NCBI GenBank assembly: GCA_023435705.1 | Contig: JAEYRH010000003.1 | Coordinates: forward strand, 202,737 to 266,736 | Reading direction: 5' to 3' | DNA length: 64,000 nt | From: Bacillota bacterium | GTDB lineage: Bacteria; Bacillota; Clostridia; Christensenellales; UMGS416 | Part shown: piece after piece, positions 7,601 to 42,916 of the stretch | Layout: each line of letters begins with the position of its first letter | How positions within the stretch are numbered: position 1 is the first letter of the stretch | Made by a program: the position numbers and the translations under genes | The notes under the pieces: generated by a model | The model's input: the letters and a program-made list of their open reading frames with translations, nothing else | What the model was told of the DNA's origin: nothing | Database searches by the model: none

Positions 7601-8941
7601 TCAATCCGTTTCCATCAACCACAGATAACCCTTTGCAACTGCGTCTGCCATCAGCTGTTCGGTATTGGCAAGTGACTTTTTTGCCTGGTTGAGATAGGCT
7701 TTGGTGTTCAAGCCGTATTGCTCCGGGGAAGCGATCGCCCTGGCCAGCGGCAATATGGTGAAATGGCGTCCGCCGGTCGTATACATATAGGTCCATGTCG
7801 GCAGGTACTGAACCGATTCGATGGTCGCTGTGCCGCCATAGGGCTTGGTGAGGTTCAGCCGCAGGATCATGCTATCCTCAGAGTATTTGAAGCTATAGCC
7901 GGTGCCTTTGAACTCATCCCGCTGGCAGGAGAAAAAGTTGCCCAGGGAATAGGCCACGATCGTCTTGCCGCCGGTCAGGCCATTGGGCAGCAGGTCCACC
8001 TCCTGTAGCCAGTGGGGATGACTGCCGATCACCACATCCACACCGGCTTTGGCCAGCCCGGCTGCCAATTTCTTCTGGTTGGCGTCTGGCGGGCGGCGGT
8101 ATTCCGCACCCCAATGCATGCAGAAGACCACCAGCTCCGCGCCATCTTCGCGCATATGGCGGGCCATAGCGGCCATTTCCTGCAGGTCTGCGTCGATGGT
8201 CTGATTGGAGAATACATTCACAAGGCCCTTCACATCATCGCCCAACTTCTGGTAATCCAGCTTGATGCTTCCATCCTTTGTGCGGGTGCACCACGTGTAG
8301 GCTGCAATTCCGATCTTCACACCCTTTACATCTGCAATCAGATAGGGCTTGTCTTCCGCCTTCTCTCGGATTCCCGTGCAGGCGATCCCCTTGCTTTCAA
8401 GCAAGTCCAGCGTGTGAAAAATGCCTGTGCCCCAGGTGTTGTTGGCATGGTTGTTGGCAGTCTGCAATACGTCAAAACCTGCCAGCTGCAGCGTGTCTGC
8501 CACCTCATCCGGTGCGTTGAAGATCAGGCTTTTCCGCTGGGAATATGGGGGCTTGCCGCCCAGCGTACACTCGAAATTGCCCATAGTCAGGTCGGCGCTG
8601 CCCAGAATTTCGTTGATGTATTGGAAACTGTAGTTGAAATCATAGGTCTTGGTTTTTTTGTCATAAGCCGATAGGATCTCAAAATACTGAAACATGATGT
8701 CGCCCACAGCCATCAGGCTCACGTGTGTGGGCTCCGGTGTTGGGGTTGGTTCCGCTGTCGTGGGCAAGGGGGAGGGGGTGGGCGTTGGCGTGGGTTCCGC
8801 TGTGGCCGTCTGTGCCGCTATAGTTGCGGTTGCCTGTGGTGGGGGCGTGGTTGGCATGGTCGTTTGACCGCTCAACCCATCGCAGCCTGTTAGCAAAACG
8901 CAAAGCGCCACAATCATCATTTTCCGAATCAGCATGTGCAT
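7601..8941 (-). CDS. CapA-family (PGA_cap metallophosphatase-like) lipoprotein
   Basis: Signal peptide with lipobox LLTGC, then a Pro/Thr-rich linker. Then LMAVGDIMFQ..., NFECT, LQTANNHANN and GSHPHWLQE, all typical of the CapA family. Confidence 0.8.
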   Translation of the reverse strand: MHMLIRKMMIVALCVLLTGCDGLSGQTTMPTTPPPQATATIAAQTATAEPTPTPTPSPLPTTAEPTPTPEPTHVSLMAVGDIMFQYFEILSAYDKKTKTYDFNYSFQYINEILGSADLTMGNFECTLGGKPPYSQRKSLIFNAPDEVADTLQLAGFDVLQTANNHANNTWGTGIFHTLDLLESKGIACTGIREKAEDKPYLIADVKGVKIGIAAYTWCTRTKDGSIKLDYQKLGDDVKGLVNVFSNQTIDADLQEMAAMARHMREDGAELVVFCMHWGAEYRRPPDANQKKLAAGLAKAGVDVVIGSHPHWLQEVDLLPNGLTGGKTIVAYSLGNFFSCQRDEFKGTGYSFKYSEDSMILRLNLTKPYGGTATIESVQYLPTWTYMYTTGGRHFTILPLARAIASPEQYGLNTKAYLNQAKKSLANTEQLMADAVAKGYLWLMETD

Positions 8942-9141
8942 CGCCCCGCCTATTTTTGACAGTATATGACAAGAATGTTATAATTATATCATATTCTAAG
9001 AACTTTGCATCCAGTGAATGACAATAACAAAGTCTAAAAATCAATCGCATAACAAAAACATTTGTTCCTGCCAAACCATGACAACCATCTGTCTTGTTTG
9101 AAGTTGTATACTGGGCTCATCAAACAACAGGAGGGTTTCCC

Positions 9142-9414
9142 ATGAGCGAACCGATGATGATTTGTCAGAGCTGCTCGATGCCTTTGACCGATGAAGTGCT
9201 GGGCACAGAGCAAGACGGCAGCAAAAACCATGATTATTGCATGTATTGCTACAAGGACGGCGCCTTTACCGGCGAGCAGACGATGGAAGAGCATATTGAA
9301 ACCTGTGTGCCGTTCGTCTCCAACGGCGATCCGTGGCCGGATGCCGACACTGCCCGCGCGGAAATGAGAAAGCTGTTTCCCACACTAAAACGCTGGAAGG
9401 GTGAGGCAAAATGA
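9142..9414 (+). CDS. Small zinc-ribbon domain protein
   Basis: Start at MSEPMMICQSCSMPL (GGAGGG RBS). It has a CxxC...YCxYC arrangement: CQSCSMPLTDEVLGTEQDGSKNHDYCMYCYKDGAF. Its stop overlaps the next gene's start (ATGA). Confidence 0.7.
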   Translation: MSEPMMICQSCSMPLTDEVLGTEQDGSKNHDYCMYCYKDGAFTGEQTMEEHIETCVPFVSNGDPWPDADTARAEMRKLFPTLKRWKGEAK

Positions 9415-10259
9415 TCGAGATCCCCGAGGCTGCCGTGCTGGCCCGCCAATTGAATGCTGCCGTGCGGGGCAGGGCAATCCTGTCTGCAGAAGCCAACCAC
9501 TCCCCCCACCGGTTCGCATGGTATACCGGCGACCCTGCCGGATATGGCGTGATGCTTTCGGGCCGGCAGATTCTGGGCGCTGTGGGCAGCGGCGGGGCGC
9601 TTGAGCTGAAGCTCTCTGGCGGGCTCACGTTGTTTTTCAATGACGGCCCTACGCTTCGCCTGCACAAGGCCGGCGCCAAGCTGCCGGACAAACACCAACT
9701 GCTGCTGATGCTGGACGACGGCAGTGCGCTCACCGCCTCCATCCAAATGTATGGCGGCGTGACGGCGTTCCCGGACGACCATGTGGAGAATGTCTATTTG
9801 CAAGGTGGCAGGGAGAAGCCCAACCCACTGACAGAAGCGTTTGACCGTGCTTGGTTCGATCGCCTGCTGGCTGGTGAAGGTGTTGGCAACCTGAGCGCTA
9901 AGGCGTTTCTGGCAACCGAGCAGCGGGTCCCAGGCCTGGGCAATGGCGTGCTGCAGGACATACTCTACAACGCACAAATCCATCCCCGCCGCAAGATGGA
10001 AACGCTGAACCCTGATGATCTGGACCGGCTTTATCACAGTGTCAAAAGCACTCTGGCCGAGATGGACTCGGGTGGTGGCCGTGACACAGAGACGGGCCTT
10101 TATGGCTTGCCTGGTGGCTATCAGACGAAGCTCAGCCGTAACACTGTGGGCACTGCTTGCCCCCGATGCGGTTCCACGATCAAAAAGGAGCCTTATCTGG
10201 GCGGCGCCATCTATTGGTGCCCTGGCTGCCAGGCGGAGCCTGCGAAGAAAGGGAAGTGA
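9411..10259 (+). CDS. Fpg/Nei-family DNA glycosylase homolog with Ile in place of the catalytic Pro2
   Basis: N-terminus MIEIPEAAVL, compared with the canonical MPELPEVE. H2TH-like segment AFLATEQRVPGLGNGVLQDILYNAQIHPRRK. C-terminal zinc finger CPRCGSTIKKEPYLGGAIYWCPGCQ. Confidence 0.75.
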   Translation: MIEIPEAAVLARQLNAAVRGRAILSAEANHSPHRFAWYTGDPAGYGVMLSGRQILGAVGSGGALELKLSGGLTLFFNDGPTLRLHKAGAKLPDKHQLLLMLDDGSALTASIQMYGGVTAFPDDHVENVYLQGGREKPNPLTEAFDRAWFDRLLAGEGVGNLSAKAFLATEQRVPGLGNGVLQDILYNAQIHPRRKMETLNPDDLDRLYHSVKSTLAEMDSGGGRDTETGLYGLPGGYQTKLSRNTVGTACPRCGSTIKKEPYLGGAIYWCPGCQAEPAKKGK

Positions 10260-10548
10260 TCCGGCTCCTCATCCCCATCACCTTGTGAAGCGACCACCTC
10301 CCAGCCCCGCTGATAACCCTCATTCTCAACACTGTCTCCCTTGAACAGAACCACTCCCAGCCCTTCTCCCTCATGGGGGGAGGGTTATATTTGTTATATT
10401 GATCGTATTTCCTTCATCATACCTAACCCTATGAGGGTCACGGGGAGAAAAACCGGACAAAATTCTTCGCATTTCCCAAACTTCTTGCAGTCCACTGCCC
10501 ATACAGGTAAAATGATAGATCAGTGATCCGTTGATGGGAGGAAAGACA

Positions 10549-11244
10549 TTGGTCACACTGGAAGGCATTAAGCAGAACGAAGTGATCATGGCCTTGATCC
10601 GCGAGGCAAACAATGTGTTGGCCGCCATCGGCTACACCGAGCACGGCCAACGGCATGTGGGCTTTGTGAGCAATACGGCCTCGGCCATTCTGAAAAAACT
10701 GGATTACCCTGAGCGCACCGTGGAGTTGGCCGCCATCGCCGGTTGGGTGCACGACGTGGGCAACGTGATCAACCGCAAGCATCATGGCATCAATGGCGCC
10801 ACGCTATTGTTCCCGCTGCTGCGCGAAATGGGCATGGAGATGGCGGAGATCGCGAAGATCCTTTCTGCAGTCGGCAACCATGAGGAGGAAAACGGCATGC
10901 CGGTTTCCGACGTTTCCGCTGCGCTGATCATCGCGGACAAGTCTGACGCCCACCGCACCAGGGTGCGCAAGGGCAAGTATGACCCGTATGATATTCATGA
11001 CAGGGTGAACTACTCCATCAAAAAGAATTGGGTGGATGTGGACCCGGTCAAGCGCGTGATCACCTATGCCATGACGATGGACAATTCCTCCTCAGTGATG
11101 GAATTTATGCAGATCTTTCTGCGGCGCATGACAATGTGCGAAAAGGCAGCGGAGTTTCTGGAATGCCGGTTCGACCTGGTTGTCAACGGCGTGGTGATCA
11201 ACAACCAGAGAGCCAATGGCAAGGATGGCCCGGTTGTTAACTAA
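10549..11244 (+). CDS. HD-domain phosphohydrolase
   Basis: H...HD metal motif (GQRHVGFV ... WVHDVGN). I prefer the TTG at 10549, 7 nt after GGGAGG. The ORF track starts at 10531 and an ATG lies at 10534, so the start is uncertain. Confidence 0.7.
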   Translation: MVTLEGIKQNEVIMALIREANNVLAAIGYTEHGQRHVGFVSNTASAILKKLDYPERTVELAAIAGWVHDVGNVINRKHHGINGATLLFPLLREMGMEMAEIAKILSAVGNHEEENGMPVSDVSAALIIADKSDAHRTRVRKGKYDPYDIHDRVNYSIKKNWVDVDPVKRVITYAMTMDNSSSVMEFMQIFLRRMTMCEKAAEFLECRFDLVVNGVVINNQRANGKDGPVVN

Positions 11245-11279
11245 CAGGCAGATGAGATCGCAAGCGGGAGCAGATGCAG

Positions 11280-11951
11280 ATGTTTGGTATTATCGAGAGT
11301 ATCATCAACAATTTCGGGAATTGGATCTTACAACTCCTGTATTGGTTACCGGGGATGTTAATCGGATTTACAGTCCATGAGTTTTCCCATGCACTGGCGG
11401 CTGACCGGCTTGGAGACCCAACACCCCGAATGATGGGCAGGCTTACGCTGAACCCCGTCGCACACATCGATCCAGTGGGCTTCATTACATTGATTGTGGC
11501 ACACTTTGGCTGGGCCAAGCCTGTGATGACAAACCCATCGCGTTACAAGATTAAGCGATATGGATTCGCAATCGTTGGATTTGCTGGTCCATTCTCCAAT
11601 CTTGTACTTGGTATCTTCTTCATGACGATATATTACCTGCTTGCTTTTAATGGCTTGCTCATCGAAGACGGGCCTATCACGATGATACTCTATTATGCCG
11701 CGCTGGTTAATTTCTCCCTGATGGCGTTCAATCTTATTCCGATCCCCCCGCTGGATGGATACAATATCTTGAAGGATATTGTGTTAGTGCGGTTTGTTCG
11801 GTCGCAGACCCTGTGGTCATTTGAGCGGTATGGTACATTGATCCTGCTGGCATTGATTTTTATAGGGCCAACATCCTATATCATTTCAGCTGTCACTACA
11901 TTCTTCTTTAACACCGGATTTCAACTGTTTACGTTGATATTCGGTTATTGA
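11280..11951 (+). CDS. Site-2 protease (M50) family membrane metalloprotease
   Basis: HEFSHALAADRLGD (HExxH) and NLIPIPPLDG motifs, and a multi-TM protein. The ATG at 11280 has better spacing from GGGAG than the ATG at 11274. Confidence 0.8.
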   Translation: MFGIIESIINNFGNWILQLLYWLPGMLIGFTVHEFSHALAADRLGDPTPRMMGRLTLNPVAHIDPVGFITLIVAHFGWAKPVMTNPSRYKIKRYGFAIVGFAGPFSNLVLGIFFMTIYYLLAFNGLLIEDGPITMILYYAALVNFSLMAFNLIPIPPLDGYNILKDIVLVRFVRSQTLWSFERYGTLILLALIFIGPTSYIISAVTTFFFNTGFQLFTLIFGY

Positions 11952-11960
11952 CGAAACGCT

Positions 11961-12710
11961 ATGGCATATCATGTATCGCTTGCCATGTTCGACGGCCCGC
12001 TGGATCTGCTGCTCTACCTGATTTCCAGGGCGCAGGTGGATATCCGCGACATCTTCATTTCAGAAATTACAGACCAATTCCTGGACTACATGGCCGGGCT
12101 GGACGAGCTTGACATGGATCGCGCCAGCGAGTTTTTGGAGATGGCCGCAAGGCTGCTGGAGATCAAGTCCCGCCGGTTGCTGCCCGGTGAGCCTGAGGCG
12201 GAAAAGGATGAGGAAGACCCGGAGCAGCTGCTGATCCGGCAGCTGGAGGAATACAAGCTCATCAAGGCTGCCAGCGCCTCCTTGCAGGAAAAGGCAAAGC
12301 AAGCAGCCAACGTGTATTACCGCCTGCCCATGGAGATTGTGAAGGGCACTGACTTTGACATCACAAATGCCGATGCAGCTTTGCTGGGCCGTGCTTTTGC
12401 GATGCTGCTGGCCAGGGTGCAGGAGGAAGAGGAAGACAAGCCCGAGCGGCACATTGAGCGGGAGAGCTTCACGGTGCAGCAGATGATTTTCCGCATCCAG
12501 GGCATCCTTGCGGAAAGCCGGGCACCGGTTAGCTTCCGGGCCCTGTTTCTTGAGCGGCCAGGCAGGGAAGAGGTCATCACGGCGTTCTTCGCACTGTTGG
12601 AGCTTTTGAAGCTCAACCGCATTGGTATCCGGCAGGACAGCCTGTATGGCGGGATCACCATTGAACCCAGGCAAAAAACCACCGAGGAGGCGGAGCATGG
12701 AGAGGAATGA
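11961..12710 (+). CDS. scpA: Segregation and condensation protein A
   Basis: FDGPLDLLLYLISRAQVDIRDIFISEITDQFL is the hallmark ScpA N-terminus. It is followed by scpB. Confidence 0.9.
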   Translation: MAYHVSLAMFDGPLDLLLYLISRAQVDIRDIFISEITDQFLDYMAGLDELDMDRASEFLEMAARLLEIKSRRLLPGEPEAEKDEEDPEQLLIRQLEEYKLIKAASASLQEKAKQAANVYYRLPMEIVKGTDFDITNADAALLGRAFAMLLARVQEEEEDKPERHIERESFTVQQMIFRIQGILAESRAPVSFRALFLERPGREEVITAFFALLELLKLNRIGIRQDSLYGGITIEPRQKTTEEAEHGEE

Positions 12711-36373: not shown

Positions 36374-38524
36374 GTGAACGGGTTCATCGACAGAATTCGA
36401 AAGGAAGCAGCAGGCAAGCTGGACGTCAGCCTGATCGAACGGGCTTATGAATTTGCCGGGGCAGCCCATGAGGGGCAGGCCCGCCAGACTGGCGAGCCTT
36501 ATTTCATCCACCCCTGCCAGGTCGCCACGATCCTTTTGGATATGGAAATGGACGCCACGACGATCGCGGCCGGCCTCCTGCATGACACTGTGGAAGACAC
36601 AATTGTTACGCTGGATCAGATCAAAGAAAAATTCGGGCCGGAAATTGCCCTGATTGTGGACGGCCTGACCAAGATCAGCAAGGTGGAGTTCAGCAGCAAT
36701 GAGGAGCGGCAGGCCGAGAGCATCCGCAAGATGCTGCTGGCAATGTCGCAGGATATCCGCGTGATCATGATCAAGCTGGCCGACCGCCTGCACAACATGC
36801 GCACTCTTGATGCCTGCCCCCGGGAGAAGCAAGTTGCTGTGGCCCGCGAGACCCGCGACATTTATGCGCCACTGGCCCACCGCCTTGGTATCTTTAAGAT
36901 CAAGATAGAGCTGGAAGACCTGGCGCTTCGCTATTTGGATCCTGAAGGTTATGCCGAGGTGGCTCGTGAGTTGGAGGCAACGGTGGCCAACCGGCGGGCG
37001 GAGATCGACCTGGTGATCGCGCAGATCCGCGAGCGGCTGGTAGATGCGGAAATCACTGCCACCATCGAGGGCCGCCTCAAGCATTACGCCAGCATCTATC
37101 GCAAGATGAAGGAGCAGCACAAAACGCTGGAGCAGATTTACGACCTTTCTGCTGTGCGTGTGATTGTGGACTCTGTGAAGGACTGCTATGGCGTGCTGGG
37201 CATTGTGCACACGCTGTGGCGGCCGTTGCCGGGCCGGTTTAAGGACTACATCGCCGTGCCCAAGGCCAACCTCTACCAGTCGCTGCACACCACGGTGATT
37301 GGCCGGGCCGGTGCGCCGTTTGAGGTGCAGATCCGCACCTGGGAGATGCACCGCACCGCTGAATACGGCATCGCGGCCCACTGGAAATATAAGGAAGACG
37401 GCACAGACAACACATTTGACAATAAGCTCGCATGGCTGCGCCAAATCCTGGAGTGGCAAAACGAAACGCGGGACGCTCATGAGTTCATGGACTCGTTGAA
37501 GCTCGACCTGTTTTCCACCGAGGTGTTTGTGTTCACGCCCAAGGGCGATGTGGTGGATCTGCCCAAGGGTGCCACGCCGGTGGATTTCGCCTATATGATC
37601 CACAGTGCGGTGGGCAACAAGTGCGTGGGCGCCAAGGTCAACGGCAAGATGGCCATGCTCAACGCTGAGCTCAAAACCGGCGACATCGTGGAAATCATCA
37701 CCTCCAACACCAGCCGGGGGCCAAGCCGCGACTGGCTTAATATCGTGAAAACACCCCAGGCCCGCAACAAGATCCGCGCCTGGTTCAAAAAGGAATACAA
37801 GGACGAAAACATCGAAAAGGGCCAGGACATGCTGGAGGAGGCTGCCAAGCGCTCCGGCGTTCTTCTGGGCGACCTTTTGAAGCCCGAATGGCTGCAGAAG
37901 CTATATAAAAAGTTTACGCTAAGCTCCGTGGAGGATATGTACGCCGCAGTGGGTTATGGGGGCCTCACCACCGGGCAGGTGCTGCAGCGATTGCTGGCCG
38001 AGCACCGCCGCGAGCAGAAGGCCAAGCAAGCAGAAACGGCGCCTGCCACTGAAAGCAAGGCGCAGAGAAAGCCACCGTCCAGCAGGGGCATTATTGTGAA
38101 GGGGCACAAAAACATGCTGGTGCGCTTCGCCCAGTGCTGCAACCCGGTGCCTCACGATGAGATCGTGGGCTTCATCACCCGGGGTCGGGGTGTGTCTGTG
38201 CACCGCCGCGACTGCCCCAGCATCATTGACCTGATGAACGACCCCAGCCGGTTCATTGACGTGGCCTGGGAGGATGATGCCAGCTCGGCCTACCGCGCCC
38301 GCCTGCACCTGAGTGCCTATGACCGCCCGGCGCTCATTGTAGACATCTACAAGGCCATCGACACCGTGGATGCTCACATGATCGAGGTAAACGCCAAAGT
38401 GACCGCCAAAGGGGTGGCCAACATGGCGATGCTCATTCAGATTAAAGATAAGGTGCAGCTGGAGGCATTGATTCGGGCCTTCCGCAAGATACCCGAGATG
38501 ATTGATGTGTATCGGGGGACGTGA
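36374..38524 (+). CDS. relA: Bifunctional (p)ppGpp synthetase/hydrolase (RelA/SpoT homolog)
   Basis: 716 aa. GTG start after AAAGGAGA. HD hydrolase motif (HDTVEDT), synthetase motif (YQSLHTTV), then TGS and ACT-like C-terminal regions. Confidence 0.92.
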   Translation: MNGFIDRIRKEAAGKLDVSLIERAYEFAGAAHEGQARQTGEPYFIHPCQVATILLDMEMDATTIAAGLLHDTVEDTIVTLDQIKEKFGPEIALIVDGLTKISKVEFSSNEERQAESIRKMLLAMSQDIRVIMIKLADRLHNMRTLDACPREKQVAVARETRDIYAPLAHRLGIFKIKIELEDLALRYLDPEGYAEVARELEATVANRRAEIDLVIAQIRERLVDAEITATIEGRLKHYASIYRKMKEQHKTLEQIYDLSAVRVIVDSVKDCYGVLGIVHTLWRPLPGRFKDYIAVPKANLYQSLHTTVIGRAGAPFEVQIRTWEMHRTAEYGIAAHWKYKEDGTDNTFDNKLAWLRQILEWQNETRDAHEFMDSLKLDLFSTEVFVFTPKGDVVDLPKGATPVDFAYMIHSAVGNKCVGAKVNGKMAMLNAELKTGDIVEIITSNTSRGPSRDWLNIVKTPQARNKIRAWFKKEYKDENIEKGQDMLEEAAKRSGVLLGDLLKPEWLQKLYKKFTLSSVEDMYAAVGYGGLTTGQVLQRLLAEHRREQKAKQAETAPATESKAQRKPPSSRGIIVKGHKNMLVRFAQCCNPVPHDEIVGFITRGRGVSVHRRDCPSIIDLMNDPSRFIDVAWEDDASSAYRARLHLSAYDRPALIVDIYKAIDTVDAHMIEVNAKVTAKGVANMAMLIQIKDKVQLEALIRAFRKIPEMIDVYRGT

Positions 38525-38557
38525 GCTTTCGGTCAAAACTGTGATTTATGATACAGA

Positions 38558-38587
38558 GAATGCCCCTCCCGCTCGGGAGGGGCATTC
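38558..38587. terminator. Bidirectional 14-bp perfect stem-loop between the convergent relA and propeller-lipoprotein genes
   Basis: GAATGCCCCTCCCG-ct-CGGGAGGGGCATTC. Confidence 0.75.
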
Positions 38588-38600
38588 TTCAACTGTTTAA

Positions 38601-39731
38601 CTATTTCAACTTTGTTGTCGCAAGGCCTTTCCAACCTTCCACCTCGCAGGCTCCTTCTTCATTACTTCCGGTTGAAACTGCAGTGCCATCTGCTTTCAGG
38701 CCAACCACATGGCCTGACCCGGCTGTGATGGCGATGATGTTTGTCCAATCCTGTATGTTGCCTTCCCCAAACATGTTCTGCCCGGCGGCCACCACTGTGC
38801 CGTCTGCTTTCAGCCCATAGGAGCAGTACCCTCCGACGGCGATGGCGATGATGTCGCTCCAGGATTCCACATTGCACTCACCATCGTTGTTGTATCCGGT
38901 GGCAACCACGGTGCCGTCAGCCCTGAGCCCCAGCACGGTTCTTTCATTCGCCGCGATGGCTACAATTTTTGTCCACTTGCTCACGTTGCATTGCCCATAT
39001 TGATTGTTTCCTGTGGCAACCACTTTGCCATCCTTTTTCAAGCCAACTCCGAATCGTTCGCCGGCTGCGATGGCTATAATGCCCTTCCAGTTTTTTACCT
39101 TGTTGGGGTCAGAGCTCTTGTAATCGATGCCGTTTGACAAGACTGTTCCGGCAGCTTTCAACCCTATCACGGTATCATTTCCACCGGTTGATACCGCGAT
39201 GATTTTCTTCCACTTTTTCAGCGTGCGGCTCAAATAGCTTCTCTGCGATCCTGAGACCACAACGGTGCCATTGGATTGCAAGCCCACGACGTGAACATAT
39301 CCGGCTGATATTGCGACAATCTTGTTCCATTTGGCTGTGTTGATCCCATACTCCTTGTTGTTACCCGCTTGGACAACTTTCCCATTCTTGGTGATGGCAA
39401 ACGAGAAGTTCCCTGCGGCAATATTGCCCGCAAGCAGCCGGCGCGAGGCCTGCAATTTTGCCAAATCTGGTTTTGCCGTGGGTGTGGGTGTTGGCGCAAG
39501 CGTTGGAGATGCGGTGGGCTCCTGTGTCATTTCCAGCGTTTTGGTTGGAGCCACAGTGGGCAATAAGCTGGGAGCAGCCGTGTGTGAAGCGGTGGGAGAG
39601 GGGCCCATAGTTGCCGTTGGGGTGGGCTTCGCCACAGCGGGTTGGCACGCCGAAAGGAAGCAGGCGGCCAGCAGCAGAAATGCCGTCAATGCTGATGTTA
39701 GCATGGTGGATCTCTTTGACTTTGCACTCAT
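38601..39731 (-). CDS. Lipoprotein with about seven RCC1-like (RCC1_2-type) beta-propeller repeats
   Basis: Signal peptide plus lipobox (FLLLAAC), then a Pro/Thr-rich linker. Seven ~38-aa repeats follow, of the form W-x-x-I-[IV]-A-I-[AS]-x-G...GL[KR]xDGTVVxxG. It is full-length homologous to the C-terminal half of 39788..41869. Confidence 0.8.
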   Translation of the reverse strand: MSAKSKRSTMLTSALTAFLLLAACFLSACQPAVAKPTPTATMGPSPTASHTAAPSLLPTVAPTKTLEMTQEPTASPTLAPTPTPTAKPDLAKLQASRRLLAGNIAAGNFSFAITKNGKVVQAGNNKEYGINTAKWNKIVAISAGYVHVVGLQSNGTVVVSGSQRSYLSRTLKKWKKIIAVSTGGNDTVIGLKAAGTVLSNGIDYKSSDPNKVKNWKGIIAIAAGERFGVGLKKDGKVVATGNNQYGQCNVSKWTKIVAIAANERTVLGLRADGTVVATGYNNDGECNVESWSDIIAIAVGGYCSYGLKADGTVVAAGQNMFGEGNIQDWTNIIAITAGSGHVVGLKADGTAVSTGSNEEGACEVEGWKGLATTKLK

Positions 39732-39787
39732 GATTTCACCTCATATTCTTCTAGACTGTCTGGGCATTGGTGAGAAGTCAATTTGAT

Positions 39788-41869
39788 TTATTTCAGCCTT
39801 GTCGTTGCGAGTTTATTCCAACCGTCCACTTCACAGGCCCCTTCTTCGTTTGACCCGACTGCTACCGCGGCGCCATCGTGCCGCAGGCCAACCACATGCC
39901 CTGATCCGGCTGAGATGGCGATGATATCGGTCCATTTGTCTGTGTTGCGCTGGCCTAAATGGCCATCGCCCGCGGATATGACCGTGCCATCTGCCTTCAA
40001 CCCATAAGAACTGAAGTCACCCACGGCAACTGCTACGATGTCACGCCAGGCTTCCACGCTGCACTCTCCGTCGATGTTGTAACCTGTGGCCACCACCGTT
40101 CCGTCAGCCTTTAATCCTAGCACCGTCCTCGAGCTTGCCGCGATGGCAACGATATCTTTCCACTCGCCTACGTTGCATTGTCCATATTCATTGTTGCCTG
40201 TGGCCACCACCGTTCCGTCTGCCTTTAGCCCTATTCCAAACCCTTCACCGGCTGCGATGGCGACAATGTCTTTCCAGTTCTTTACTTTGTTTGGATCCGC
40301 GCTATCATAAAATATCCCGGTGGATACTACGGTGCCATCTGCTTTCAGGCCCATGATCACATCGTTGCCGCCAGCAGCTATTTCAACGATATTTTTCCAC
40401 TCTTTGGTATTCCTCTCAAAATCTGGCCTGCCGTGCCCGCCGGTTACGACTACGGTGCCATCGGAGCGCAATCCGGCAACGTGTACGAATCCTGTGGATA
40501 TAGCTACCATCTTGCTCCACTTGCTTGTATCGATTTGGTATTCCTTGATATTCCCAGCCTGGTGGACCTTCCCGTCTTTTGTGACGGCAAACGTGCAAAT
40601 CCCTGCAGCGATATTTCCTGCGATTAACCGACAGTTGGCTTGTAATTGGGATATGTCGGGATTCACCGTTGGTGCAGGGGTCGGGGTGGGTTCCGATGTT
40701 GGGGTGGGTGCGGCAGTTTGCGCAGGCGATGCTGTTGGTGTTGGCTTTGCCGATGCGACCAACTCCAGATCGGCAGAAGCCGGCTGCGCAGTGGTGGGTT
40801 GGCAGGCTGTGGTGAAGCAAGCCACAAGCAGGAGAATTGCCGTGATCACTGCAGCCAGCCGCGTAGAGGTGCTGGATTTTTCGCTCATAAAAACACCCCT
40901 TATTCTTTTTTCTGCGCTGGTCCTGTTGTGTTCCATTCCCATACCCATTACAGGCTTTACGCTTCCTGGCTGGCTGAAGAGCATCAGCAGTGTTGAGGCA
41001 TACTGCCTTTTTTCGTCATTGCCCATCTTTTTGACCACAGTGCTGTCACAAGACACTTCCATGTCCTGCTGCATTTGATGGGCAGCGAGCCAAACAACCG
41101 GGTTGAACCAATACACACATCTCAATACCATCAGCAACAAGGAAATGATGTGATCACCCCTTTTGTAGTGGGATAGCTCATGGCGGAAGATATGCTCCAA
41201 TGTCTCGGGATTGCGATGGCTCTCGCTTGGCAGCAACAGTATCGGTGCAACGCTGATGGAAAGAGCCGGTGTGGAGATGCCATTCAAGATTACAGGCCTT
41301 GGCCCATGGCGAATCCCCAACTCCAGCTTGAGCCTCTCAAACAGGCGCCGCTCTGCGGAGGGCAATGGCTGCTTGTTGCGCAGGATCGATGCGGAGAGCC
41401 TGAGGTGAACAAACGCGAACCAAGCGCATACCGAGATGATACCGACAAACCATATGGCTGGCAGCACATGCTCCAGATCCCGGGACCACCAACCTGGATC
41501 CGTATTGCGATTAACTTGTGGTATTGCCGGAGCATTCACCGGCATCGACTCATCTTTCGTAACGTTTTTCATTGTATTGGTGGCGGTTTCTTGTGAATTG
41601 GCAACTGGCAGAGCGTTGTTATGATTGGTGTGCTCGCTGCCAGCCTGCAACAATTGAGTGACTTGTTGTGTTTGTTGTGGCAGAGTGATCAGGTGGAACC
41701 CACCTTCGATGGTAACGGGCATTAACAACCGCAACAGCAGAAGGAACCACACTCCATATTGCATCGCGGCTGACATCTTGTTGCGAAACAGCGTGCGAAA
41801 GAGCAGGATTGCCAGATAAAGAACGGCAGAATAGACAGTAATCTCGGCAAGCGCCTCAAGAACCCTCAT
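39788..41869 (-). CDS. M56-family (BlaR1/MecR1-like) membrane zinc metalloprotease fused to an extracellular RCC1-like seven-repeat propeller
   Basis: Start at MRVLEALAEIT (GGGAG RBS), overlapping the blaI-like stop by 14 nt. Multi-TM N-terminus with FRHELSHYKRGDH (HExxH) and YWFNPVVW. Then a TM/lipobox-like segment (LLLVAC), a PT linker and seven propeller repeats. Confidence 0.85.
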   Translation of the reverse strand: MRVLEALAEITVYSAVLYLAILLFRTLFRNKMSAAMQYGVWFLLLLRLLMPVTIEGGFHLITLPQQTQQVTQLLQAGSEHTNHNNALPVANSQETATNTMKNVTKDESMPVNAPAIPQVNRNTDPGWWSRDLEHVLPAIWFVGIISVCAWFAFVHLRLSASILRNKQPLPSAERRLFERLKLELGIRHGPRPVILNGISTPALSISVAPILLLPSESHRNPETLEHIFRHELSHYKRGDHIISLLLMVLRCVYWFNPVVWLAAHQMQQDMEVSCDSTVVKKMGNDEKRQYASTLLMLFSQPGSVKPVMGMGMEHNRTSAEKRIRGVFMSEKSSTSTRLAAVITAILLLVACFTTACQPTTAQPASADLELVASAKPTPTASPAQTAAPTPTSEPTPTPAPTVNPDISQLQANCRLIAGNIAAGICTFAVTKDGKVHQAGNIKEYQIDTSKWSKMVAISTGFVHVAGLRSDGTVVVTGGHGRPDFERNTKEWKNIVEIAAGGNDVIMGLKADGTVVSTGIFYDSADPNKVKNWKDIVAIAAGEGFGIGLKADGTVVATGNNEYGQCNVGEWKDIVAIAASSRTVLGLKADGTVVATGYNIDGECSVEAWRDIVAVAVGDFSSYGLKADGTVISAGDGHLGQRNTDKWTDIIAISAGSGHVVGLRHDGAAVAVGSNEEGACEVDGWNKLATTRLK

Positions 41870-42248
41870 TTTGCTCTCCCTTCTTGGCCAGCTGCTCCAG
41901 CAGCTTCGCCAACTCCTCCTGGTCTTTGCTGGATAGCCCACTTTCTTTGATCATGCACACCAACAGCTCTTTTGTGGAAGTTTCGGTAACCTTTTGCAGC
42001 AAGCCTCTGCTCTCGTTGAGGATGCACTGATCCTTTTCCACCAGAGGGAAATAGTAGTTGTCTCTGCCTCTGGTTTCAAAGCCAACAAACCCTTTTTCGT
42101 TGAGCTTCCGCAAATAGGAGGCATAAGTGCGGTAGCTCCAGTTCAGAGACCCTTTCATCGTTTCGATCACGCCGGAAAGTGTCTGTGGAGACTTTTCCCA
42201 CAGGGCAGACATCACGGCCCATTCGGATTTGGTGAGCGTATCAGGCAT
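41856..42248 (-). CDS. BlaI/MecI/CopY-family winged-helix transcriptional repressor
   Basis: MPDTLTKSEWAVMSALWEKSPQTLSGVIETMKGSLNWSYRTYASYLRKLNEKGFVGFETRGRDNYYFPLV. ATG at 42248 lies 6 nt after GAGGTG. The ORF track starts at the in-frame GTG 42257. Confidence 0.85.
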   Translation of the reverse strand: MPDTLTKSEWAVMSALWEKSPQTLSGVIETMKGSLNWSYRTYASYLRKLNEKGFVGFETRGRDNYYFPLVEKDQCILNESRGLLQKVTETSTKELLVCMIKESGLSSKDQEELAKLLEQLAKKGEQNEGS

Positions 42249-42302
42249 GCATTTCACCTCTTTGCCAGCATGCGAAAGCTGTTTGTGATTGTTGGAATAA
42301 TC

Positions 42303-42342
42303 CTATGATTGTAAGTATAATCATAGCAGATGGCGTTGTCAA
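42303..42342 (-). promoter_or_regulatory. Promoter of the blaI-like operon, overlapped by a perfect inverted repeat (candidate operator)
   Basis: The minus strand reads TTGACA (42342..42337) - 17 nt - TATACT (42319..42314). The inverted repeat CTATGATT-N8-AATCATAG (42303..42326) covers the -10 box and the predicted start site. Confidence 0.65.
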
Positions 42343-42466
42343 TAGCGCTTTTTTTATTTCTACCCAAATGGTCGGTGTTCTTTTTGCTGGCGGAAAAGCC
42401 TCTTTCCTTCCTGGCAGATGTTGGTGTATGATGTGTTCACAACAAGCTTGAGCAAACGGAGCTCCC

Positions 42467-42916
42467 ATGCGCGCAGTGATCCAGCGTGTCAAATCCGCCA
42501 GAGTGGACGTAGCAGCCCAGACCATCGGCCAGATCGGCCACGGCCTGCTGGTCTTTCTTGGCGTGGAGATGGGAGACGGTGAGAAGGACCTGGAATACAT
42601 CTGCACCAAGCTCATTGGCCTGCGCATCTTCGAAGACGATGAGGGCAAGATGAATCTGGCTTTGGGCGATGTGGACGGCAGCGCATTGGTGGTCTCACAG
42701 TTCACGCTGTTGGGTGACGCACGCCATGGCCGCCGGCCCAGCTTTTCCAATGCCGCAGCGCCCGAGGAGGGTGAGCGGTGGTATCTGGCCGCGGTGGATT
42801 TCCTCCGCCGTGCTGGCATTGAGGTGCAGACCGGGCAATTCCGGGCCGATATGGAGGTTCACCTCGTCAACGATGGGCCTGTCACCATTCTACTGGATAG
42901 CAGGAGGGCCTTTTGA
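42467..42916 (+). CDS. dtd: D-aminoacyl-tRNA deacylase
   Basis: MRAVIQRVKSARVDV...VSQFTLLGD...RPSF...MEVHLVNDGPVTILLDS. 149 aa. Confidence 0.92.
   Translation: MRAVIQRVKSARVDVAAQTIGQIGHGLLVFLGVEMGDGEKDLEYICTKLIGLRIFEDDEGKMNLALGDVDGSALVVSQFTLLGDARHGRRPSFSNAAAPEEGERWYLAAVDFLRRAGIEVQTGQFRADMEVHLVNDGPVTILLDSRRAF

Follow-up and report, generated by a model that had tools for sequence, protein, structure and literature searches.

The M56-propeller operon

We analysed a stretch of 64,000 nucleotides (nt) from a Bacillota bacterium (contig JAEYRH010000003.1, positions 202,737 to 266,736; hereafter the window), in which a gene for a BlaR1-like membrane sensor, an M56 protease fused to RCC1_2 repeats, is followed by a gene for a free lipoprotein with the same repeats. 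Read along the minus strand, positions 38558-42342 hold, in order, a promoter with a palindrome, a blaI-type gene, the M56/RCC1 gene, a 56-nt spacer, the lipoprotein gene and a GC-rich hairpin. The explanation that we favour, and regard as probable, is that the segment of the sensor gene that resembles the start of the lipoprotein gene is native to the M56 module, that the free gene was derived from the sensor gene, and that both genes belong to a single BlaI-repressed operon running from promoter/operator through blaI, the M56-propeller gene and the propeller lipoprotein gene to the hairpin. The parts of the operon are as follows.

42314..42342, minus strand: sigma-70-like promoter of the operon, predicted by consensus match only (TTGACA, 17 nt spacer, TATACT; 11/12 consensus matches)
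42303..42326, no strand assigned: 11-nt inverted repeat CTATGATTGTA/TATAATCATAG over the -10 box, a candidate BlaI-type operator judging by its position
41856..42248, minus strand: BlaI/MecI-type repressor gene (Pfam Penicillinase_R, 92.6 bits), likely start ATG 42248 after GAGGTGAAATGC
39788..41869, minus strand: M56-propeller sensor gene, 693 amino acids (aa), from Pfam, Foldseek and the N-termini of homologues
39732..39787, minus strand: spacer of 56 nt between the sensor gene and the free gene, its last ~21 nt homologous to the KRIRGVF codons of the sensor gene
39737..39742, minus strand: Shine-Dalgarno (SD) sequence of the free gene, GAGGTG, inside the spacer
38601..39731, minus strand: free lipoprotein gene, 376 aa, with signal peptide (39648..39731), PT-rich linker and seven-bladed propeller (38604..39434)
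38558..38587, minus strand: GC-rich hairpin GAATGCCCCTCCC...GGGAGGGGCATTC 3' of the free gene, read from the sequence, the probable operon end

The open reading frame (ORF) of the BlaI-type repressor overlaps the start of the M56 gene. The GTG start that the ORF list gives for the blaI-like gene (42257) is likely three codons too early, and on an identical Logan contig (L169) the gene call for the repressor is 130 aa. A terminator scan did not flag the hairpin at 38558..38587 because its T-tract is weak.

The sensor and the free lipoprotein

In the earlier note on this DNA the fusion was read as an ORF of 717 aa (39788..41941, minus strand). By homology its true start is the ATG at 41869, which gives a protein of 693 aa whose N-terminus, MRVLEALAEITVYS, agrees with those of the homologues. 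The N-terminal two-thirds of the sensor are a BlaR1-type M56 zinc protease (Pfam Peptidase_M56, 172.1 bits versus a cut-off of 31, profile positions 3-293 of 296), and the C-terminal third consists of RCC1_2 repeats (99 bits in Pfam). The cryo-electron microscopy structures of Staphylococcus aureus BlaR1 are the best matches of the sensor in Foldseek (8exp, E 5.5e-8, probability 1.0) and by sequence as well. In place of a class-D-like penicillin-binding sensor domain there are RCC1_2 repeats at the C-terminus, which makes the protein a BlaR1-like M56 sensor and not BlaR1 or MecR1 proper. Conservation was assessed in an alignment of 66 homologous sequences (A2), and 165 loci were fetched. The relevant parts of the sensor gene are these.

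41168..41182, minus strand: HELSH zinc-binding motif (H230, E231, H234), its columns invariant in A2
40889..40909, minus strand: KRIRGVF codons (AAA AGA ATA AGG GGT GTT TTT) at the end of the M56 domain, with the SD-like AAGGGGTG among them; the leader of the free gene is homologous to this stretch
40886..40888, minus strand: internal in-frame ATG (Met328)
40811..40870, minus strand: fourth transmembrane helix (TM4), helix 334-353 in the AlphaFold2 (AF2) model and counterpart of the core of the free gene's signal peptide
40802..40819, minus strand: CFTTAC at the outer end of TM4, its second Cys in the lipobox-compatible context FTTAC, matching the G+LPP pattern
39791..40621, minus strand: RCC1_2-repeat propeller of the sensor, extracytoplasmic (Pfam; sequence match to BLIP-II, E 2e-8)

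The AF2 model has helices at residues 2-27, 34-55, 127-165 and 334-353. Its predicted local distance difference test (pLDDT) values are mostly >88 in the M56 part and ~57 around residues 301-310, a loop just before the KRIRGVF-to-CFTTAC segment; in ten-residue blocks they are 93 and 88 over 331-350 and 61 over 351-360. The propeller was poorly modelled, as the input alignment lacked propeller homologues; a separate model, made for the free protein, was good. At its end (up to 293/296) the Pfam M56 profile matches KRIRGVF, which also aligns with S. aureus BlaR1 residues 293-299 (RRLINIK). In this alignment K321-R322 of the sensor falls on BlaR1 R293-R294, which we take to be the reported autocleavage site, and R322 is invariant in A2.

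The free protein is 60-64% identical to the C-terminal part of the fusion. Its whole mature portion consists of RCC1_2 repeats according to Pfam (116.5 bits over 5 stretches), and the AF2 model (pLDDT 87) has a helix at 6-28, a disordered Pro/Thr linker at 29-89 and seven 3-stranded blades, consistent with an RCC1_2/BLIP-II-like propeller. The closest solved structure is BLIP-II (E 1.6e-19, TM-score 0.76, 27% identity), with UVR8 and RCC1 next. The G+LPP Gram-positive lipobox pattern matches MSAKSKRSTMLTSALTAFLLLAACFLSAC, and we assign the product as a lipoprotein based on its predicted signal peptide and lipobox Cys. RCC1_2 propellers are common extracellular modules of Bacillota, where they are fused to kinases, TPR, TIR and LysM domains, and the gene of the nearest free propeller lipoprotein (P0126) stands alone behind a promoter-like region of its own, outside any M56 operon. 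A BlaI/BlaR1-type operon built around BLIP-II-like binders (propellers at 38604..39434 and 39791..40621) is a curious arrangement.

The start of the free gene matches an internal segment of the sensor gene

The internal ATG at 40888..40886 encodes Met328 (Met352 in the 717-aa frame) and is followed by SEKSSTSTRLAAVITAILLLVACFTTACQP; the stretch that it opens reads MSEKSSTSTRLAAVITAILLLVACFTTACQP, and the N-terminus of the free lipoprotein is MSAKSKRSTMLTSALTAFLLLAACFLSACQP. BLASTP aligned residues 1-376 of the free protein with residues 352-717 of the fusion (328-693 of the 693-aa form) at 60% identity (E 8e-152), without an N-terminal gap and through to the last residue, and 19/31 of the first residues are identical when counted from this alignment. 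The in-frame Met with a residue-for-residue match to the lipoprotein N-terminus and its lipobox, as described in the earlier note, is therefore real, and all of its coordinates are correct.

The same note reported that the nucleotides upstream align too, and we find this to be so: in the register anchored on the ATG, 14/21 upstream nt are identical (binomial p ~6e-4), and outside the SD (-21..-13, AGAAGAATA versus AAAAGAATA) 8/9 are identical (p ~4e-4). GGGGTG in the fusion and GAGGTG in the free gene, both SD-like, lie in the same register 5 nt before the ATG, which puts the former within 5-9 nt upstream of an in-frame ATG, as expected of an SD. The ribosome-binding site (RBS) GAGGTGAAAT is common to the blaI-like gene (42248..42260) and the free lipoprotein gene (39732..39742) and is probably a local optimum.

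The segment in other M56 proteins

A contig search with the single protein gave no match; alignment-based searches succeeded. Homologues at 30-48% identity carry (E/K)(K/R)R(I/V)RG(I/V)(F/Y)-M-[basic]-[TM]-CFTTACQP, and the domain that follows KRIRGVF-M-TM-CFTTACQP in them is RCC1, DUF6034, VanW, NAGPA or NlpC/P60, or there is none or only a short tail. The M56-RCC1 architecture itself is rare, with full-length matches limited to the window gene (P0001) and P0002 among 1.84 billion representatives. We consider it likely that the segment flagged in the earlier note is the normal end of an M56 module, comprising the end of the juxtamembrane helix, Met328, TM4 and CFTTAC, and not the scar of a recent fusion.

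A2 shows no variation at C351, F352, T353, T354 and A355 and >90% conservation of C356, on a par with HExxH. Synonymous sites in CFTTAC vary freely, in contrast to what would be expected if it were kept as DNA, for instance as a recombination site or RNA element; its conservation is at the protein level. The invariance of C-F-T-T is stricter than a lipobox requires. The column of Met328 holds Met in 53/66 of the A2 sequences and in 31/52 CFTTAC-type ORFs versus 6/130 other M56 ORFs, in which K, D and N dominate.

The CFTTAC(QPTPE) subfamily is large and is found in Christensenellaceae and other Clostridia (window 40802..40819; A2; loci L002-L103). In M56 proteins outside this group (L043, L047, L062, L067, L080, L115), TM4 ends in VAC, TGC or IGC, with N, D or S in place of the Met. 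Tandem pairs of full-length M56 sensor genes are frequent (L006, L011, L013, L014, L021), and the family duplicates readily. Literature searches on DUF6034 and on BlaR1/M56 proteins with a lipobox returned nothing relevant and no mention of CFTTAC.

Fused, duplicated and split forms among relatives

The second genome with an M56-RCC1 operon is a metagenome-assembled genome (L001, 48% identity), in which 8001..12342 comprises blaI, the fused M56-RCC1 gene and a pair of genes for free propeller lipoproteins. Its sensor has CFTTAL, with Leu for the second Cys, and keeps the Met; the codons before it include CGC GGC, and hence there is no SD-like element. With respect to neighbourhood, the three-gene operon of the window is flanked by relA/spoT (36374..38524, plus strand) and dtd (42467..42916, plus strand) within 36374..42916. 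The layout of the independent Logan contig L169 is the same as that of the window, and the L001 operon lies in a different neighbourhood.

Free lipoproteins of the DUF6034 type adjoin M56-DUF6034 genes in L007, L011 and L014. Those of L007 (MMKCSTVSFFIVILSFLLLLTSC|QPTPETP) and L011 (...LLAGC|QPTPEEP) hold the QPTPE register, and the free paralogue in L014 has a different mature N-terminus. The search with DUF6034 returned a single free-standing homologue, P0241 (...LAAC|QKTPEKP), which is encoded beside a two-component system. In the three free lipoproteins in QPTPE/QKTPE register, the lipobox Cys occupies the position of the second CFTTAC Cys. At L166-L168 the P0241 gene lies directly 3' of a response regulator and histidine kinase pair, and the DUF6034 sensor-type lipoprotein may also serve a two-component system.

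Truly split genes were found in two lineages (L096/L097/L098 and L039; coordinates 2989..7558 in L097 and 2406..2900 in L039). In these, an M56 protein of ~315 aa without TM4 is followed by 1-3 genes with the layout MK(R/I)...LGMAL...ERRVRGVF(A/S)-TM-CFTTAC-sensor, each with its own SD and ATG start (MKRLSTE..., MKIFDTKK...). The split genes indicate that the TM4-sensor module is able to exist as a separate polypeptide. The earlier note had proposed to look among relatives for unfused M56 and lipoprotein genes: such split genes do exist, but they are split 28-29 codons (L096/L097) or 34 codons (L039) upstream of the Met position rather than at it. The same theme thus recurs across the relatives, with sensor fusions beside free lipoprotein paralogues, in fused, duplicated and split versions.

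Origin of the free gene

The nonsynonymous (dN) and synonymous (dS) divergences between the two copies are 0.24 and 2.46, respectively (dN/dS ~0.1), indicating that the event is old and that both copies are under purifying selection. No other free ORF with a CFxxAC signal peptide at its start was present in the 165 fetched loci. Together with the rarity of the M56-RCC1 architecture, this gives the direction of the event, from the sensor gene to the free gene. Since the segment is native to the M56 module while M56-RCC1 fusions are rare, AGA ATA AGG GGT GTT TTT is the ancestral coding sequence and the source of the leader. The evidence favours one of the two possibilities raised in the earlier note, that the free gene is a duplicate which carried its RBS along.

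We envisage that the free lipoprotein gene directly downstream would have been formed from the 3' 1.1 kb of the sensor gene, through partial tandem duplication or through gene conversion of an older paralogue; the copied part would have begun 20-35 nt upstream of Met328. The start codon of the free gene would then descend from Met328, its SD (now GAGGTG) from the Arg-Gly-Val codons, AGG GGT G, and its lipoprotein signal peptide from TM4, with TTAC changing to the canonical lipobox LSAC. In the present-day operon, a ligand on the sensor propeller would activate the M56 protease, and the activated protease would lead to inactivation or removal of the BlaI-like repressor, which would otherwise bind the palindrome over the -10 box. 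Induction of the operon would then yield more of the free ligand-binding lipoprotein.

The other possibility, a recent read-through fusion, would have an M56 gene without TM4 joined to a downstream lipoprotein gene, making the Met, SD and lipobox relics and the free gene ancestral. In its favour, split M56 and TM4-sensor genes exist in two lineages, and the restriction of Met and lipobox to the CFTTAC subfamily leaves room for an ancient fusion at the subfamily root. However, the segment (RIRGVF codons, Met, TM4 and CFTTAC) is shared by >60 homologues with quite different, unrelated C-terminal domains, while RCC1 fusions are confined to two clusters, and RIRGVF lies at the end of Pfam Peptidase_M56 and within the M56 domain as far as S. 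aureus BlaR1 (293-299). In addition, the split genes break ~28-34 codons further upstream and have Ala or Ser at the Met position, and a free CFxxAC lipoprotein was not found elsewhere in the 165 loci. A recent fusion is contradicted by the shared M56 segment and the upstream split points, and we regard it as highly improbable.

Several points nevertheless weigh against derivation of the free gene from the sensor gene as part of a BlaI-repressed operon. The leader match takes in the SD, an element expected of any real gene; moreover, GAGGTGAAAT also precedes the blaI start and appears to be the usual RBS of the organism, so the SD part of the match could be partly convergent. An unanchored local alignment of the 56-nt spacer with the sequence upstream of the internal ATG is marginal (p 0.058), and the similarity that a simple tandem duplication should leave in the 3' flanks falls short of significance (p 0.13); the breakpoints therefore cannot be exactly placed. 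The free paralogues of L001 carry a GGAGG RBS of their own and signal peptides that bear no relation to TM4 (MYYKTLKK...LVSC), which implies that the fusion and free layout may predate the TM4-like 5' end, in which case gene conversion, and not a fresh duplication, may have given the window gene its 5' end. The paralogues are 64% identical within a genome versus 55-58% across genomes, which fits independent duplications or concerted evolution. Finally, the regulatory scheme of ligand, protease activation and repressor removal is entirely inferred.

These points leave two scenarios for derivation from the sensor gene: independent duplication in each lineage, or an old fusion and free layout that was homogenised by gene conversion extending across the 5' end in the window. 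Under either, the start codon, RBS position and signal peptide of the window's free gene are taken from inside the sensor gene.

Possible use of the internal start

A further reading is that the internal start is functional, with the ATG at 40888 and AAGGGGTG as its SD giving a 366-aa pre-lipoprotein beside the full-length sensor. TM4 would then serve as a signal peptide, with Cys356 or Cys351 lipidated. This is compatible with an origin by duplication and adds a present-day function. The evidence includes SD scores in kcal/mol and resampling of synonymous codons, in statistics that are not fully corrected for phylogeny.

The enrichment of Met in A2 and in the CFTTAC-type ORFs is in keeping with such a start, as is the fact that the residues replacing it (K, L, A, H, G, S) are chemically unconstrained. 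Members with Met have more SD-like sequences than those without (-6.36 versus -3.56 kcal/mol, Mann-Whitney p 0.002) at equal synonymous-codon expectation, but the Met group is not above synonymous resampling (combined p 0.15) and [RKE]-Gly windows taken generally from these genes reach -6.32, like the junction. The Arg codon is AGG in 8/17 Met members and 1/14 non-Met members, against a background of 12-17.5% (p 0.005); after related sequences are collapsed the association has p 0.013-0.11, and AGG makes up 42% of the Arg codons in the fusion ORF. ATA AGG GGT GTT TTY ATG is common to all four IRGVF-M lineages, with other codons used in IRGVF-S, whereas the closest orthologue, L001, has the Met and no SD. 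The internal site scores -7.4 kcal/mol, comparable to the true starts of the free gene (-6.9) and the M56 gene (-8.7), although an equally good score is reached by 4.9% of all 345 internal in-frame ATGs of the window.

Survival of a duplicate with exactly this Met and SD position, and the existence of the TM4-sensor as its own polypeptide in the split relatives, are also as expected of a working start; on the other hand, genomes with separate free paralogues would have less need of such a product. In the predicted mRNA fold (40849..40928, minus strand) the SD-like AGGGGUGUU is paired with AGCACCUCU (CACCUCU; S-T-S codons), 22 nt downstream, which speaks against the internal start. Local RNA structure around the internal ATG is not more stable than that of shuffled sequences (z -0.44). 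As a separate observation, AGCACCUCU resembles an anti-SD.

We make no claim of a conserved SD, in view of the resampling result and because Arg/Lys/Glu-Gly codons are SD-like everywhere in these genes. Overall, the evidence for the internal start is suggestive, and a start maintained by selection is a tentative proposal that we hold to be possible but on balance doubtful. To our knowledge, an exported lipoprotein product of an internal start has not been described.

Possible processing of the full-length sensor

The lipobox-like motif of the sensor could also act within the full-length protein, with TM4 as an internal lipoprotein signal: Lgt would lipidate the second Cys of CFTTAC and Lsp might cut before it, leaving the propeller lipid-anchored and possibly severed from the protease. 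The context of this second Cys agrees with the Gram-positive lipobox pattern, and genuine lipobox cysteines occupy the homologous position, with A-C of CFTTAC invariant or >90% conserved; the residue before the first Cys is variable (A, T, V, L, I, C, G, S, M, F), and the first Cys is thus not a general lipobox. The Cys of the free DUF6034 lipoproteins at the same position (LLTSC|QPTPE, LLAGC|QPTPE, LAAC|QKTPE), the retention of CFTTAC in members without Met, and the VAC, TGC or IGC that ends TM4 in other M56 proteins without Met are all consistent with processing. However, a working lipobox tolerates variation (L/V/I, A/S, G/A), so that the C-F-T-T invariance points to a different or extra constraint. 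Thr at -3 and -2 is atypical, and free copies drift to LSAC, LAAC, LAGC and LTSC. In addition, the sensor of L001 has Leu at the second Cys, and no precedent for Lsp working on a helix inside a polytopic protein came out of a literature search on internal lipoboxes or signal peptides and on signal peptidase II in such proteins. We therefore view processing of this kind as unlikely.

A broader proposal, for the Christensenellales/Clostridia branch of the M56 family, is that each CFTTAC-type sensor gene may also yield its sensor domain as a separate, lipid-anchored protein, through internal initiation or through Lgt/Lsp acting on TM4, and that in the free and split genes this division into two polypeptides would be fixed at the gene level. 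We offer this as speculation, somewhat less probable than the internal start itself. If the lipobox or the internal start were used, signalling would include a lipoprotein form of the sensor, which would change the picture of BlaR1-type transduction outside the beta-lactam paradigm.

Comparison with known systems

Systems of the BlaR1/BlaI type, lipoproteins, RCC1 propellers and partial duplication of genes were all known before. New are the propeller sensor, of which there are two clusters worldwide, the reuse of TM4 as a signal peptide and of coding codons as an RBS, and the CFTTAC/Met module with its fused, duplicated and split forms. The locus offers a clean and datable case of a secreted-protein gene born inside a membrane-protein gene: the start codon would once have been an internal Met, the RBS a set of Arg-Gly-Val codons, and the signal peptide a transmembrane helix. 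In addition, BlaR1-like sensors of gut Clostridia are seen to share, in a large group, a feature that had not been described, the invariant CFTTAC at the end of TM4.

The window operon shares with the BlaR1/MecR1 and BlaI/MecI systems of Staphylococcus and Bacillus the M56 zinc-protease membrane domain with HExxH, the TM4 leading to an extracytoplasmic sensor, and an adjacent, translationally overlapping BlaI-type repressor gene behind a promoter with a palindrome. Unlike BlaR1, however, the sensor has a seven-bladed RCC1/BLIP-II-like propeller instead of a class-D penicillin-binding domain, its TM4 ends in the invariant CFTTAC with Met frequent before the helix, and the operon also encodes a free lipoprotein that is paralogous to the sensor. 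There is a parallel to this last feature in the bla system, in which secreted or lipidated beta-lactamases are paralogues of the BlaR1 sensor, just as the free lipoprotein is of the window sensor. BLIP-II of Streptomyces exfoliatus (PDB 1jtd, 3qhy) is the closest protein by sequence and fold and, like the window propeller, is compact with 3-stranded blades. In contrast to the window proteins, BLIP-II is secreted, is not lipidated and has no link to M56, and beta-lactamase binding has no sequence basis in the window.

In-frame internal starts that give rise to a stand-alone C-terminal domain are known from E. coli ArcB-C (bioRxiv 10.1101/520783) and from the Rpn genes-within-genes (PMC10327210). 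The likeness to these lies in an SD and ATG at proper spacing inside a sensor gene, at a domain boundary, although for the window it is seen in the sequence only. The free gene has the n-region, h-region and LSAC/LAAC lipobox of lipoproteins handled by Lgt/Lsp. OXA class-D enzymes occur as lipoproteins (PMC12691667), and the OXA/BlaR1 pair resembles the window pair in that a sensor domain is paralogous to a free lipoprotein; unlike them, the signal peptide in the window derives from the sensor's own transmembrane helix.

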